NCBI RefSeq assembly: GCF_054482525.1 | Contig: NZ_CM137006.1 | Reading direction: 5' to 3' (one strand) | DNA length: 64,000 bases | In this document: in pieces, positions 30,001-36,000 of the stretch | Layout: every line of letters begins with the position of its first letter | Numbering within the stretch: the first letter of the stretch is position 1 | Program-made: the position numbers

Positions 30001-33000
30001 TGAATGGTCAAACCGTAAGCCGTGATGGTGCGCGTAATCTCGGTGAAGTACGTACCGGAGTTGAGGCGAAAGTAAATCACAACCTTAGCCTGTGGGGGAA
30101 TGTCGGTGTGCAACTAGGTGATAAAGGCTATAGCGATACTCAGGGCATGCTGGGTGTGAAATATAGCTGGTAAACCGTATAAGCCGCATGTCGAAGATGC
30201 ATGCGGCTTAATATTGCCGACTTCAAACGACTTTTAAATCCTCCTTTTTATCCGCGATCGCGGATATCGCAGCGTTTATCCCGTAGAGCGGATAAGATGT
30301 GTTTCCAGATTGACTTTATCCTCACTAAAGGATAAAACTGATAATATCCCCTTGAGCGGATAAATTTGCTGTGGACGTATGACATGATGAGCTTTCAGAA
30401 GATCTATAGCCCAACGCAATTAGCGAATGCAATGAAACTGGTTCGTCAGCAAAATGGCTGGACGCAGAGCGAGCTGGCGAAAAAAATCGGCATTAAGCAG
30501 GCGACAATTTCCAATTTCGAAAACAACCCTGACAATACCACGCTGATGACATTTTTTAAGATTTTACAGTCGCTTGAACTCTCAATGACGCTATGCGACA
30601 CGAAAAATGCCTCGCCAGAATCAACAGAACAGCAAGATCTGGAGTGGTAATGCCTAAACTTGTCACTTGGATGAACAACCAGCGGGTAGGCGAGTTAACG
30701 AAGTTAGCCAATGGCGCGCACACCTTTAAGTATGCACCGGAGTGGTTAGCCAACCGTTATGCCAGACCGTTATCACTTTCGCTGCCATTGCAGAGGGGGA
30801 ATATCACCTCTGATGCCGTATTTAACTTCTTCGATAACCTGTTACCCGATAGCCCGATTGTACGTGACCGGATCGTTAAACGTTATCATGCTAAACGTTG
30901 TCCTCAATCAGATAGAGCATTTTATCGTATTGTACAGTCAGATTTTTTGATACCCGGCGAGGCTCTCGCCAGGTAAATTCTGCATCAAGGTCATCGTCTA
31001 ATGCCAGCGGCCGGTACGCGTTAAAATCATGCAAGGGTTCTTTGGCAAAGCGCCGGTTATAATCCGCCATGTATTCTTCTGCAAATGCATTGGCCGCTTC
31101 TATTGTACAGATCCCCTTAAGCCTGAGCTCCTTAACGAGTCGGTCCTGAAGTGTCAAATGAGCACGTTCAACGCGGCCTTTTGCCTGGCTGGTTTCAGCA
31201 CACAAAGGAGTAATATTAAGGCAGCGCATGGCCCTGGCAAACTGGGTATCGCCGAGACCGGTGGTGGCGTGCTTATTATTGACTCTGAATACGCTGGCTT
31301 TATCGCTGTAGAGGATCATCGGTCTACCGTATTCAGTGGTGGTCGCAGCCATCAATTTGTATCAGCTCGCCAGTACAAGGACGCCGGTAACGAGGCTGAT
31401 GAATTTTCGGTGCGCGTTGTCTGCGGGGGATCCAGAGTCCCGCGTTTATCATGAGACGTCGGATGGTTTCCTTTCCAAGGACCAGACCGTGAACTTCCTC
31501 CAGCTTTTCCCGCGCCAGCGTGGGGCCAAAATCACGGTAGTGCTCCCGGATTATACTGAGTGCCTCCAATGAGCCACAAATAGAACATTAGCATTGAGCC
31601 TCTATAATTTTGGTGCGCATAATGTGCTACACGTTATGTTGAAAAGGCCGCTGCGAAAATAGAACCCCGCAGCGGCCTCTTTAGCATAACGTCATTGTGC
31701 GAACCAATTATTTATTTTTTTGATTTTTGAGTTGCCTCAATTTCTTTTTTTAAACCATGAAGGTTTTTATGACCGGTTCCCTTTGGTTGTAACTGTCCCC
31801 TTTGTAACTTACTGATTCTATTTCCTCTTTCTGATATTACTATTTCATCATTCAGGGATTTTTCAATCAATGCATACAACGCATTGAATACTTTGATGTT
31901 TTCTGATTCCCTCAACTCTTCGAGGATTTTACTTAGTTGTAGAAAGTCATTAATTAAACTAACGCCATTTTTAGGATCGTAAAACTCCTCATGTCGTTTT
32001 AACATCTTTGCAATCTTTTTTTGCTTATCTGTTGCGTTTGACATTTTCCCTTTCCCTTCAACTAGATTTAATCATTACATTCAACCGTTGCTACGGTTCC
32101 ATAATAAGTAATGTAAAGAAAACTTCCATTATTGAACTGGCCAACAGAGGTCGATACTTTTACCCCGTAAATGACATTTCCTTGTCTACCTGCAGAATTC
32201 ACGAACGCATCATAGGCTTCCTGGTGCTCATTTCTCTTGCGCTCCATAAAACCACGAATTAAACCTTTATCAGAAATTTCAATAGGATAGGTCTTCTCAA
32301 TAAATCCATGAATCTCTACTACTTTCATATTGGAGGGCAATGTATCAGTGCTTAACACTAACATGTTGATTTCCTTTCAATTAAAGAACCTTAATGACAT
32401 TACTTAATTATTTCATTTCAATCAACAACATATGGGTTGTTTTTTATCATTCCGACACTATATCTAGGCGAGATAACTAAAATGGCTAGTTATCACTATA
32501 CCTCTAAAGGATAAAATAATGGCTGACTTCTACATAACAGCAGTAAAATATGATGAAAATCATGAACATATCGTTAAGGTTAAAACACGGCAACGAGTTG
32601 ATGGTAAGGTTAAAGCACCAAGCATCAATTCTCGCCAATTTATCGTCGAATTGATTAATACCGGAAAGGTATCATTTTGGACTGGATTACAGGATAGCGA
32701 AGGACGATGGGGAAAAGGGGCTGACGTGACCGTAACCTCTACTGGTTTCCTGACTACATCACCAAATAATACCACTCGGGATAACCTCGGCGAATTGCCT
32801 GAATTTTAACCAAAAATCAAACGTGCAGTGTAGGTAATACTGCACGTTTGTCTCATTCCTGAGACTCTACCTTTTACTGTTCATCGCCAGTGATTAATTT
32901 TCTGGTTAACATCTTTGCACTGTAGCTATATGAACTTAAAGCAGAAACCTGTCTTGCAAGTGATATGATATCTTGCTTGTCCAATGTCCTGATGTTCCAG

Positions 33001-36000
33001 ATAATGAAGTTATGGGCATCAGTGGTTTCTTTGTCAGTGTAACCATCTGCTGAAGTGATCAACTTTCTTTCTGTTGCGTCTTCTTTAACCGCAAGTGCAT
33101 CACCATGAGCCAAGGTGTTTAAATCCGTACCAGTGATTTTTGCGATTTCGATCACATCACTGAACTTAGGTTCTGTTTTAGCAGTCGCTATCCTAACAAG
33201 TGTCCTTACGTTGATGCCGGTTTTGTCTGCGACTTCTTCGTATGTCCCATGCTCCAGGATAGCTTTCCGTATTCTTTCTGCTCGCTTGCTATCAGCCATA
33301 ACATACAACTCTCGATTCATCTTAGGTGCTCCAGTTTACATCACTCTTTTTAGATGCTTTTTTTCATGGACAAATATGTCCTTAAAAACAAGACATCGTA
33401 TTGACAACAGATCTCAACATGCTTAGCATTTATTTGTCCATGACTGAAAGACACATTTGTCTATTGACATGGTAAATACAGGTAAAAGTCATTTTGATTC
33501 ATGTTTACTTGACTGCTGAGACACTTATGATCGACTGGTTTACCGGAATCCTGCCTTGCACACACCGACCGTTACCGGCCGGTAGCGTCGTCAGCGTTGA
33601 TGCTGATGGTGCGGTGGAGTGGGAAACAGTAAAACGGTTGACCGTTCGCGGTTCGTATGAATCAACGATGAAAGTAAGATCTGTTGGATCTGATGGCGAA
33701 GGTCGGGCAACACATCTTTATATTGATGGGAATCCTTCAAAATTCCTTCAGGGACATTCTGTTATTGGTTCTGATGATTTGCAGGGACTGGTATTAACCG
33801 TATACGCAAGAATACTGGCATTACTTCATATTCCTCATGATCTCCCGTCATATCGTCAGGTAATGTCTGGTCAGTATAAGATTTCCCGTATTGATATTAA
33901 TTATATGTATTCATTGTCAACACTGGAAAATGTCCGTGCATGGTTATATGCCGCAGAATTTAAAGCGAAAACTCGCCATGGTCGCGCCTGTGGTAAAGGT
34001 GGCACTGTTTACTTAGGGAAAAACTCCCGTCGTTGGAGCCTGAAATTTTATTCAAAATATGATGAGCATATATCTGGCAAAAAAGGGCACCAGATGGCAG
34101 ACGAATTCGTTAAAGCAGGTTTACTGGACTGGTCAAAAGATAAATTACGCATTGAATTAACATTAAGAACAACTGAATTAATTGATTTGAATCTTACGCT
34201 TGGTAATAGCTGGAATATTCAGACGCCCAATAAATTATTCTCTGACTATGTAGGGAGAATAGAAATGAATCAAAATACTATATTAACTGATGAAAAAATA
34301 ATTAATCTCCCAAGAAAAATACAGTCTACATATTTATTGTGGAAGCAGGGCGCGAACATGAAAGAGATGTTACCGAAACCTACATTCTACCGACACCGTA
34401 AAGAATTACTTTCTTTCGGAATAGATATTAACTTTTATTGTGAGTCACCGGATTCTAATAACGTTGTTCCGTTGGTTCGTATTCTTGAAGCCAAACCGGC
34501 CAAAATTCCATCATGGTTTTATGAGAAAGGTTTAATTTTCGATCATAACCGTATTTCACATGCCAGTAACTGGTATTAAAGGAGAGTGATATGTCTAATT
34601 ATGGTCTTTTTGTAAAAGGTAAAATGCTTGGTGCTCGCCAGCGTAATAAGGTCAATGGTCAGGGATACTATAATGAAATTGGTATTGGCTTAGAGATCCC
34701 TGATGGTTTTGGCGGCACTAAGCAAGACCAGATTATTATTCGTGTTTCTCAGGCTCTTGTTAATGCCGGTGTAATGAATCAGGCAAATAATCTTATCGGT
34801 AAGTTAGTCCAGATACCTGTATATGTTCGTGTCTGGTCAATGGAAGGTAGAGAAGGAGTAACTTATAATATTTCATCTGACGGTGGAATCACTGAAATAA
34901 AAGGTTAAATATGGCTGATGTTATACAAATATTAATAGCGTCAGGCATTGTTATCTCTTTTGGCCTCGGCGCAATTACTGCGGGGGTTTTTCGTTAATGT
35001 ATATAGCTTATTTCTTCGGGGCTTATACCTTTGGTTTTGCCCTTTTCTACGCGGTCGGTTCATTTAAATCATTTTCTGACCGATTAATGTAATGTAACTT
35101 TAATGGAGTTATTTATATGAAAGTTTTGTCTTTTGTTAAATCTAAAATTGCAGTAGCTTCAACAGCGCTTTTTGTTTCTGCGAGTTCTTTTGCGGCAGCT
35201 GAGTCTACAGGCGGGACTGATTATGCAGGTCAGGCAATGGATGCATTACTGACTCAGGCAAATGATCTTATTGGTAAAGTATGGCCTGTCGTTGTTGCTG
35301 TGGTTGGTGCTGGCCTTGCCATTCGTATTTTTAAAAAATTCGCTTCTAAAGCAGTTTAAAATTCACTCAGGGGCATTTGTTGCCCCTTTATTAAATTGGG
35401 TTATTATGAAAAGGAAAATATTAATTACTTTCTCTATTTTTATTTCTTCTTTTTCATATGCTGATTCATGGGAAAGCATTACTAAATCTACTTTTCAAAG
35501 CTCTGCATATGCTGAAAGTAAGCAAATAACCAACCAAGATGGTACTAAACAAACTGTTTATTATATTGATGCAACCATGCAGGCTTCTTCCTGTCAGGGA
35601 GCTAAAGACAGTGCTCAGGTTGTTTTTAATCAGGTTAAACCAACTTATGAGGGAATGTGGCCTAACTCTGAATTCCGTCTTGTATTTTCTGACGCTTGTA
35701 CTTACAGCGACTCTCCAGGCCAGAAAGATAAATACTGGACTTTAACTGCTTATATTATAGGTGATATTCAACGATCTATTCCTGATGAAAAACCTTCCGA
35801 GCCTACGCCTGAAGAGATTTGTGAAGCTAAACCCCCCGAAGAAGGTGTATTCAATAATGTCTATTCTTATGACGGTGATCGTTATATTTATTATAACGGT
35901 TGTGAATATGAGGCCACTGGCGTCATTGTTTGCCAGAGTGATAGCACTGTTTGTGCTGCGACATGGAAGCCTACCGGAACTGTAGCCGCACCTTCAGATA

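Follow-up and report, generated by a model that had tools for sequence, protein, structure and literature searches.

A putative repressor-operator immunity cassette in a tandem UPΦ-type filamentous prophage of Escherichia coli

The stretch of DNA analysed here, 64,000 nucleotides of contig NZ_CM137006.1 in NCBI RefSeq assembly GCF_054482525.1 (hereafter the window), ends within a tandem array whose repeating unit is a filamentous prophage of 8743 bp. Judged by its gene order and protein identities, this unit is a UPΦ-type, dif-integrated filamentous virus of Escherichia coli. As an initial annotation of the window had pointed out, a helix-turn-helix (HTH) gene in this unit (32874-33320, minus strand) is divergent from the replication gene gII, whose ATG lies at 33527, with about 200 bp (206 bp by our count) between them. 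We regard it as probable that this region controls lysogeny and immunity in a UPΦ-type prophage integrated by the Xer/dif route, and that it forms a cassette in which the product of the HTH gene would block the predicted gII promoter, termed PA, through two putative operator dyads, O1 and O2, together with additional half-sites. Earlier publications already cover the phage group, including its integration at dif, its occurrence as tandem arrays and the mosaic way in which it is related to I2-2/IKe and to YpfΦ, and the finding is largely ordinary. What is new is a sequence-level operator model, in which two RGACA-N4-TGTCY dyads and accompanying half-sites surround a predicted promoter, along with exact boundaries for the cassette and a typing scheme in which four enterobacterial immunity types are spread across two virion modules.

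The predicted repressor

The HTH gene starts with an ATG at 33320, preceded at a distance of 8 nt by a Shine-Dalgarno GGAG that is kept in two other immunity types, R1 and R3. It encodes a predicted XRE/Cro-type HTH repressor of 148 amino acids (aa), which we assign to immunity type 'R5'; some NCBI records give a 141-aa form that begins at Met8. The protein is laid out as an N-terminal five-helix HTH domain (residues ~10-75) followed by a C-terminal helical domain (~95-145). A DNA-binding fold, the absence of which the initial annotation had named as one of two findings that would refute its proposal, is supported by profile and structural comparisons alike. The protein matches Pfam HTH_3 (E 1.6e-6), PHROG 3557, a 'transcriptional regulator' (E 1e-61), and several PHROGs annotated as 'transcriptional repressor'. 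In an AlphaFold model built from an 18-sequence alignment the N-terminal domain has a predicted local distance difference test score of 83-90, the C-terminal helical domain being less confident, and Foldseek superposes the N-terminal domain on 434 Cro at 1.6 Å, on P22 c2 at 1.4 Å, on SinR at 1.2 Å and on C.AhdI at 1.3 Å. No peptidase domain was found in the protein with Pfam.

Among known filamentous prophages, the repressor is 75% identical in amino acid sequence to that of CUS-1, which is represented in all our comparisons by the UTI89 prophage, and 42% identical to that of the prophage in E. coli APEC E19057. Similarity to RstR(El Tor) of CTXφ is slight: a single BLASTP comparison gave 28% identity over 43 aa (E 8e-4), and hhalign gave a probability of 76.6% for the HTH domain only. 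A tblastn search of our phage collection of 50,697 records matched Vibrio cyclitrophicus phages only, and the CTXφ record, which is in the set, was not matched. These Vibrio phages are Tubulavirales of 6.4-9.7 kb in which a 51%-identical repressor homologue is divergent from a Phage_CRI replication gene, as for example in Vibrio phage 10N.239.311.B03_PE002 (locus L082, 3980-4612). An R5 repressor (at least 98.6% identical) also occurs apart from any adjacent gII at 2501-2947 of locus L017; the region upstream of it, which includes a gene for an Endonuc-like_C-domain protein, does not align with the intergenic region of the window, and a YafQ/RelB toxin-antitoxin pair lies nearby.

Candidate operators around the predicted gII promoter

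The 206-bp control region between the repressor gene and gII (33321-33526) is type-specific and cannot be aligned between immunity types. It contains the 11-mer TCATGGACAAA at 33364-33374 on the plus strand and its reverse complement at 33433-33443, an inverted repeat that extends to 13 bp exactly and to 20 bp at 85% identity. These are the only two copies per unit when up to one mismatch is allowed, and the eight copies in the window stand against 1.75 expected, a number that none of 100 shuffles reached. This 11-bp inverted motif and a palindrome, GGACAAATATGTCC, had both been described in the initial annotation and are found exactly where it had placed them; to these we add a second dyad, AGACACATTTGTCT, and three lone half-sites. 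The palindrome constitutes the putative operator dyad O1 (33368-33381), and the second dyad is the putative operator O2 (33449-33462).

Dyads of the form RGACA-N4-TGTCY are found in the 64 kb solely here and at the equivalent place of each repeat unit. Similarly, the seven RGACA/TGTCY pentamers within these 206 bp are the maximum for the unit, host DNA in the window (31.6 kb) having at most two per 206 bp, and a count of seven was reached in 0 of 20,000 shuffles. The half-sites are clustered well beyond chance. Their arrangement is regular: the pentamers are centred at 33370 and 33379 (O1), 33393, 33437, 33451 and 33460 (O2), and 33521. The lone half-site AGACA at 33391-33395 lies 10 bp past the end of O1, and the lone half-site TGTCC at 33435-33439 ends 10 bp before O2; in both cases the nearest pentamer centres are 14 bp apart. 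O1 with its satellite and O2 with its satellite are thus mirror-symmetric about 33415. A further AGACA at 33519-33523, just before the gII ATG, may be no more than a component of the ribosome-binding region.

The axis of this symmetry falls within the spacer of PA (33401-33429, plus strand), a predicted sigma-70 promoter for the genes from gII to gIV that consists of TTGACA, a 17-nt spacer and TAGCAT and agrees with the consensus at 10 of 12 positions. It is the best promoter match in the region, and types R1, R3 and R2 each have a counterpart whose elements are likewise 17 nt apart; from these matches we infer the position of PA. The half-site at 33435-33439 overlaps the predicted start site, and O2 would occupy about +13 to +26 of the predicted transcript.

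Conservation was assessed across 11 loci of the same repressor type (protein at least 98.6% identical), taken from E. coli, Salmonella and metagenomes. All of these relatives keep O1 and the arms of O2 unchanged, the centre of O2 being T or C. Many spacer bases vary, and so do the flanks of the lone half-sites, the cores of which are kept (TGTCC appearing as TGTCT). The 'TCATG' part of the 11-mer also varies, from C to A or G. Because the outer part of the 11-mer varies while the RGACA/TGTCY dyad arms stay invariant, the functional unit would be the half-site or dyad rather than the 11-mer.

The hexamer AGATCT, which contains a Dam GATC site, is present at 33409-33414 in the spacer of PA and is invariant in the 11 R5 relatives. 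It also occurs in the gII promoter spacer of R1 and R3 (L022 and L001), sequences that are otherwise unalignable, and is absent from R2, R4 and R7; it could be residual homology or the mark of a methylation-sensitive promoter. No LexA box (CTG-N10-CAG) was found in 33250-33600, and an Rfam scan of 30000-40500 returned no match at E values up to 0.1.

An exchangeable block with exact boundaries

Comparison with APEC E19057 delimits the block precisely: the DNA is 97.9% identical from 33527 onward as far as the end of the unit, unalignable over 32875-33526 and similar again over 32820-32874. Because homology breaks at 32874/5 and 33526/7, the cassette boundaries coincide with the repressor stop codon and the gII ATG. 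On the left, the segment 32820-32874 is kept across immunity types (84-93%), with homology ending exactly at 32874/5. This left boundary is occupied by predicted bidirectional terminator hairpins that separate orf96 from the repressor gene's 3' end (32818-32865); they are supported by a terminator scan and by a predicted fold of -16.2 kcal/mol (z -6.7).

The same block structure is seen across the wider family. At 60 gII-anchored loci, which fall into 12 classes, repressor clusters pair 1:1 with intergenic clusters, and the enterobacterial types R1, R2, R3 and R5 are each found on both UPΦ and CUS-1 virion backbones. For example, the exact R5 repressor type of the window sits on CUS-1 backbones in L014 and L016. 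Our set of 5426 complete E. coli genomes contained no copy of the R5 cassette above 80% identity. On the evidence of these alignments the repressor and intergenic region behave as an exchangeable, presumptive immunity cassette. Other types carry repeats of their own: in the ECONIH2/F11 type a 60-aa regulator is accompanied by direct repeats of TGAACTCA, and another type carries GGTGTAACGTATTACACC. Repeats of 'TATTGAC' were considered as R1 operators and dropped, the motif overlapping -35 elements in several types.

One locus (E. coli LSN03-016011/A, L005, 4008-5404) has a tandem duplication that spans the repressor gene, the intergenic region and 129 nt from the start of gII, so that two identical regulator genes flank a 5' fragment of gII. 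This duplication looks like a recombination footprint at the cassette boundary.

Related regulators also occur outside phages. Conjugative plasmids of ~40 kb that encode TrbL and a resolvase (L084 and L085/L086) carry 122-aa repressor homologues that are 55-62% identical to the window protein. In the L085/L086 homologue (1049-1212 and 3001-3369 regions) the recognition-helix segment is identical to that of the window, and a divergent promoter region ~1.8 kb upstream on this plasmid contains seven half-sites in 165 bp, including AGACAGGACAtaaTGTCCtgTGTCT. Elsewhere in the locus no more than three are found in such an interval, and 0 of 20,000 shuffles reached seven. The sister plasmid L084, whose homologue has an R1-like helix, serves as an informal negative control and has no half-site cluster in the corresponding region. 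These observations suggest that filamentous phages and plasmids have traded a regulator together with its operators.

Proposed mechanism and alternative explanations

In the mechanism we propose, the 148-aa XRE-type HTH protein would be made leftward from the intergenic region and, probably as a dimer or a higher oligomer held together by its helical C-terminal domain, would bind O1, O2 and the flanking half-sites. These sites bracket and overlap PA (-35 at 33401, -10 at 33424), with one half-site on the predicted start site and O2 in the leader, and their occupancy would block transcription of gII, gV and the genes for the virion and its secretion. Such a block would keep the replication and virion output of the lysogen low and would make it immune to incoming phages with the same operators, and O1, which lies towards the repressor gene, would let the protein regulate its own synthesis. 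With repressor and operators exchanged together as a single block, members of the family would be expected to be heteroimmune, as are the rstR/ig-2 alleles of CTXφ.

Several points weigh against this proposal. No leftward sigma-70 promoter for the repressor gene was found in the region at a threshold of 8 or more matches out of 12, and candidates picked manually are poor. Types R1 and R3 do not have equally clean perfect dyads, and the plasmid dyad is spaced by N3, not N4. The 1:1 pairing of repressors with intergenic regions is weaker evidence than the exact boundaries because neighbouring DNA is co-inherited anyway. As far as the sequence goes, with neither a LexA box nor a peptidase domain, there is no evident route for lifting repression. 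Moreover, ordinary cultures of UPΦ lysogens contain released virions (PMC7307601), and for this reason any repression would have to be leaky. Finally, the role of YPO2273 of YpfΦ/CUS-2 in Yersinia pestis, which is considered an RstR homologue and occupies the rstR position, 'awaits experimental demonstration' (PMC4266046).

The most substantial alternative is that the half-sites are bound by a host factor (of the SlyA/RovA type, or Fis, IHF or H-NS) and that the HTH protein regulates the cargo genes or acts in the manner of an antitoxin. There is precedent in Y. pestis, where RovA represses YPO2274-2279 and binds the putative promoter region of YPO2274, the gII homologue (PMC4266046, citing Cathelyn 2006), and both the AT-richness of the intergenic region and the presence beside the repressor of cargo genes that have no known function would suit it. 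However, the motif changes with the repressor type within the same host species, and cargo varies freely among loci that share a repressor, leaving no conserved partner gene. The same half-sites, moreover, cluster beside the plasmid operon encoding a homologue with an identical recognition helix. We therefore think it unlikely that host factors account for the sites in place of the repressor, although they may well act in addition to it.

It is harder still to see the inverted repeats as the gII-dependent plus-strand origin, or as other cis-acting replication or packaging signals of the kind held by the Ff intergenic region. The position would be right, since the feature tables of M13 and IKe place the origin and the pII binding repeats just upstream of gene II and the repeats of the window are likewise immediately upstream of gII. 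Yet the gII proteins of R5, R1 and R3 are 95-100% identical and their upstream regions are unalignable and carry different repeats; because a shared initiator needs a shared origin, this explanation is strongly disfavoured. Conserved noncoding DNA does travel with gII, but elsewhere, at 39438-39871, at 40193-40352 and in the attachment-site (attP) hairpin, all of it common to CUS-1, and the packaging-signal-like hairpin of the unit lies after gIV rather than upstream of gII. The gII origin would thus have to lie in the conserved noncoding DNA of the right-hand backbone, not between repressor and gII; when an origin was sought by similarity to the I2-2 intergenic region, chance-level matches only were obtained. 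Least credible of all is that the pattern is a product of chance or composition in an AT-rich promoter region next to a generic HTH gene. Short inverted repeats are indeed common in intergenic DNA, and the motif was picked after the sequence had been seen, but no shuffle matched the number of half-sites, the dyads are found nowhere else in the 64 kb apart from the other copies of this region, the arms are kept in 11 relatives while neighbouring bases vary, and the cassette boundaries are exact.

A repressor acting at O1, O2 and the half-sites could also be part of a larger scheme, which we put forward tentatively and consider rather doubtful as a whole: at least four mutually heteroimmune cassettes would reassort freely with two unrelated virion modules and a hypervariable cargo slot on one regulation and replication chassis common to the UPΦ and CUS-1/YpfΦ prophages of Enterobacterales. 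Because R5 has neither a LexA box nor a cleavable repressor, its switch would be lifted by some other route, for which a cargo-encoded antirepressor, the state of Dam methylation or copy-number titration in the tandem array would be candidates. Were this scheme true, immunity type rather than virion type would decide which filamentous phages could live together or stack at the dif sites of pathogenic E. coli, Salmonella and Yersinia.

Identity and mosaic structure of the prophage unit

The unit that carries the cassette joins two kinds of module. Its replication module (33527-34908, plus strand) comprises gII (33527-34579), of the II/X family, and a gV-like gene for a single-stranded DNA-binding protein (34591-34908); it matches TIGR01629 (E 7e-78) and PHROG 702 (E 1e-119), is common to CUS-1/YpfΦ, and is 96.9% (gII) and 98.1% (gV) identical to UTI89 CUS-1. 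There follows a Lineavirus-like (Ff-type) morphogenesis block at 34911-39437, also on the plus strand and recognised by protein identities and by PHROG and secretin matches, which holds gVII (34911-34997), gIX (34997-35092), gVIII (35117-35359), gIII (35406-36650), gVI (36647-36991), gI/Zot (36992-38086) and the gIV secretin gene (38094-39359). A packaging-signal-like hairpin directly after gIV (39356-39403; -23.5 kcal/mol, z -4.45) lies inside this block, which fits the modular logic. In contrast to gII and gV, the genes from gVII to gI have no counterpart in UTI89 CUS-1 by tblastn, and gIV is only 27% identical; at the nucleotide level, homology with CUS-1 stops at 34914/5 and resumes at 39437/8. 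By these identities the unit is mosaic, with CUS-1-like gII/gV joined to an I2-2/IKe-like virion block.

The initial annotation had likewise proposed a mosaic, temperate element, and in both respects our results agree with it. Its statement that gI, gIV, gVI, gVIII and the gIII C-terminus are close to M13 was an overstatement. Proteins of the virion block are 50-74% identical to those of I2-2/IKe, the nearest of the classical phages, and 28-54% identical to those of M13. For gIV the values are 74% (I2-2), 71% (IKe) and 51% (M13), for gI 64%, 65% and 54%, for gVIII 57% (I2-2) and 42% (M13), and for gVI 51% and 37%. The N-terminal part of gIII is 55% identical to I2-2 and, over 64 aa, 48% identical to M13, which is the best M13 gIII match; the C-terminal part is 28% identical to M13 and gives no separate match to I2-2. 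At 69% and 53%, gVII and gIX match I2-2, and neither matches M13. In the replication module, gII is 58% identical to I2-2 and 23% to M13, and gV is 42% identical to I2-2 and does not match M13.

Two other identities were considered for the unit. Its 8.7-kb size, dif site, tandem array and RstR-like gene at first led us to assume CUS-1/YpfΦ, which was rejected on the I2-2/IKe identities, the published description of UPΦ (PMC7307601) and virion genes unrelated to those of UTI89 CUS-1. A classical Ff phage (M13/f1/fd) does not agree with protein identities of 23-54%, an integrated array and the presence of a repressor gene.

The novelty that the initial annotation had implied did not hold, since the UPΦ group, of which the unit is a member, had already been described (PMC7307601), and a contig in IMG/VR matches 4.2 kb of the unit (32874-37076), the repressor region included, at 99.9% identity. 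DNA-level relatives among the 50,697 phage genomes are lacking, save for 488 nt of I2-2 gene I at 75.5%. In E. coli, by contrast, 659 of the 5426 complete genomes (about 12%) match parts of the unit; the best match, APEC E19057, is 97.8% identical over 79% of the unit, and the ECONIH2 prophage (H7, NZ_CP014667.1/CP014667) matches at 86.2% over 68%. Exact proteins of the unit are also present in NCBI records of Enterobacterales, E. coli and Salmonella among them.

The tandem array and its attachment site

Self-BLAST (offsets 8743, 17486 and 26229) shows that at least 3.7 copies of the unit, 100% identical to one another, run on the plus strand from 31610 to the window end at 64000. The copy number is a lower bound, as the array runs past the window end and its right end lies outside. 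The repressor and intergenic region accordingly recur on the minus strand at 41617-42269, 50360-51012 and 59103-59755, three further copies that the initial annotation had missed.

Each unit opens with an attP-like junction (31610-31710, plus strand, in the first copy) in which two inverted dif-like sites surround a GC hairpin. The first site reads GGTGCGCATAA-TGTGCTACACG-TTATGTTGAAA and the second is the reverse complement of TTTAGCATAACGTCATTGTGCGAACC. GGTGCGCATAA, the first element of each unit, is the XerC arm of dif and is identical to that of E. coli dif; after it come an over-long 11-nt centre, a near-XerD arm, the GC hairpin and the inverted dif-like site. With its XerC arm and 11-nt centre the dif of the junction is imperfect, and no match to the full 28-bp E. 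coli dif, at up to three mismatches, was found in the 64-kb window. An intact dif, GGTGCGCATAATGTATATTATGTTAAAT, forms the attR end of one single-copy relative; the window junctions bear the XerC arm and an imperfect remainder, and the true attR is beyond the window end. As single-stranded DNA, 31606-31712 is predicted to form a forked hairpin whose central bulge is unpaired (-33.2 kcal/mol, z -8.5), and the attP-like segment is kept at 92-96% in UPΦ and CUS-1 relatives. Such a folded single-stranded, Xer-dependent attP is in the style of CTXφ and YpfΦ (PMC4266046). Profile searches of the unit's open reading frames (ORFs) gave no match to integrase or recombinase families. A forked dif-like hairpin at each unit start is a hallmark of Xer-dependent integration, and by this token the element is temperate in the filamentous-phage sense, as the tandem integrated array and the single-copy relative with an intact dif also indicate.

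The left flank is E. coli chromosome, with the lsr operon, an autotransporter gene of the ECSE_1600 family and hipB. The prophage of relatives sits between hipA and fimA-like genes, and the array of the window is likewise beside hipBA. Here hipA is truncated at 30895 (within the region 30593-31609), so that the N-terminal 'couple_hipA' domain alone remains and the HipA toxin gene is inactivated, hipB being intact. After the hipA remnant comes a ~700-bp fragment of an ISNCY-family transposase gene, on the minus strand and in two frames; it abuts the junction at 31610, and the usual 74 bp between hipA and dif are therefore gone. Arrays need not be uniform: in E. coli F11 (L002, 3001-13554) successive units differ in cargo (ORFs of 693, 276 and 141 nt as against 372, 468 and 423 nt) and gIII is frameshifted in the first unit, a heterogeneity unlike the 100%-identical array of the window.

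Cargo slot and right-hand backbone

Between attP and the repressor lies a variable cargo slot (31712-32809) with orf110 (31712-32044, minus strand), orf98 (32068-32364, minus strand) and orf96 (32519-32809, plus strand). The product of orf96 belongs to the DUF3892 family (Pfam, E 4e-9), and that of orf98 gave a weak YbjQ-like match only. PADLOC found no credible defence system among the cargo ORFs and the repressor, its one match being marginal (E 0.006). The slot has no nucleotide homology to other family members, and its proteins recur in E. coli, Salmonella and Dickeya records. Indeed, the slot is hypervariable among phages that share the repressor type (loci L010-L021); in L018 and L019, for example, it holds a gene for a 368-aa protein with a CAP12-PCTIR TIR domain, a defence-type domain.

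At the other end of the unit, a right-hand backbone common to CUS-1 and other UPΦ viruses (39438-40352) contains an h1-like ORF, orf81 (39907-40152, minus strand; PHROG 21003, E 4e-55) and a conserved 160-bp segment that precedes attP (40193-40352). The h1-like ORF starts with an ATG at 39509 and is frameshifted after codon 6 at a G-run (39525-39528; G4 as against G5), the remainder being open to 39756. Its other 76 codons are 100% identical to those of an 82-aa protein of APEC E19057; the frameshift recurs in each repeat and may reflect either a genuine loss of the gene or a sequencing artefact in the homopolymer. In relatives gIV is followed by this 82-aa ORF, which probably corresponds to h1 or h2 of the UPΦ description cited above.

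Implications

Filamentous prophages integrated at dif (CTXφ, YpfΦ, CUS-1, UPΦ) affect the virulence and fitness of major enteric pathogens, and the leftward ORFs of UPΦ were left as unknowns in the published description (PMC7307601). With the operator model, the cassette boundaries and the typing scheme, direct tests of superinfection immunity, prophage stacking and induction become possible. The general picture is unchanged, because the same design is already known from CTXφ.

Comparison with known systems

The closest known relatives are the UPΦ viruses, dif-integrated tandem prophages of E. coli (ECONIH2 being a named host), Salmonella and other Enterobacterales, in which the core genes follow the Ff order with ~70% protein identity to I2-2/IKe and gII/gV are more than 85% identical to YpfΦ (Shapiro and Putonti 2020, Virus Evolution, PMC7307601). 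Accessory ORFs in these viruses occupy two places, one directly past the dif-like site and one past gIV, and the group-specific genes h1 and h2 occupy a region that is intergenic in I2-2/IKe (PMC7307601). The unit in the window has the same core gene order (gII, gV, gVII, gIX, gVIII, gIII, gVI, gI, gIV) and the same tandem integration at dif, incomplete between copies, with an insertion sequence fragment as its left flank. UPΦ901, compared here by its description, is shorter (7560 bp as against 8743 bp) and has another set of cargo and another repressor cassette. The UPΦ paper (PMC7307601) makes no mention of a repressor, helix or transcriptional regulator and identifies no operators; we found no definition of a UPΦ repressor, its operators or cassette exchange in the searchable literature, though one could exist elsewhere.

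CUS-1/YpfΦ share with the unit Xer/dif integration and tandem arrays of 2-4 copies. In the case of CUS-1, a phage of E. coli O18:K1:H7, the attP hairpin (95%), the repressor (75% in amino acids), gII (96.9%), gV (98.1%) and the right-end backbone are all common, whereas its puvA-type adsorption protein, DUF2523 protein, 341-aa Zot and GspD-type secretin have no counterparts here. Resident YpfΦ gives partial protection against superinfection (PMC4266046). The classical phages I2-2/IKe (Lineavirus) and M13/f1/fd (Inovirus) have the same gene order and homologous gVII, gIX, gVIII, gIII, gVI, gI and gIV, to which I2-2 adds homologous gII and gV (58% and 42%); they differ in being episomal, with no dif-like attP, repressor gene or cargo slots.

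A further parallel is the rstR/ig-2/rstA module of CTXφ, the initial annotation having likened the layout to the rstR/rstA arrangement of integrative filamentous phages: a divergent repressor, an operator-bearing intergenic region and a replication gene are indeed recognisable in the window in the same arrangement, the operators here being putative. In both systems an XRE HTH repressor is divergent from the replication gene, with operators and the replication promoter lying between them, and in both the repressor and intergenic region are exchanged as a block between near-identical phages, which in CTXφ is the basis of heteroimmunity. An Xer-dependent attP of folded single-stranded DNA, tandem arrays and a repressor that has no autocleavage domain are likewise common to the two. 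The parts themselves differ: the repressor is not an RstR orthologue, gII (II/X, Phage_CRI family) is unrelated to RstA, and no RstC-like antirepressor was recognised in the unit. The CTXφ promoter PrstA is also controlled by LexA, whereas the window region has no LexA box. On gene arrangement and protein comparison, the module is best described as an analogue of rstR/ig-2/rstA, not an orthologue.

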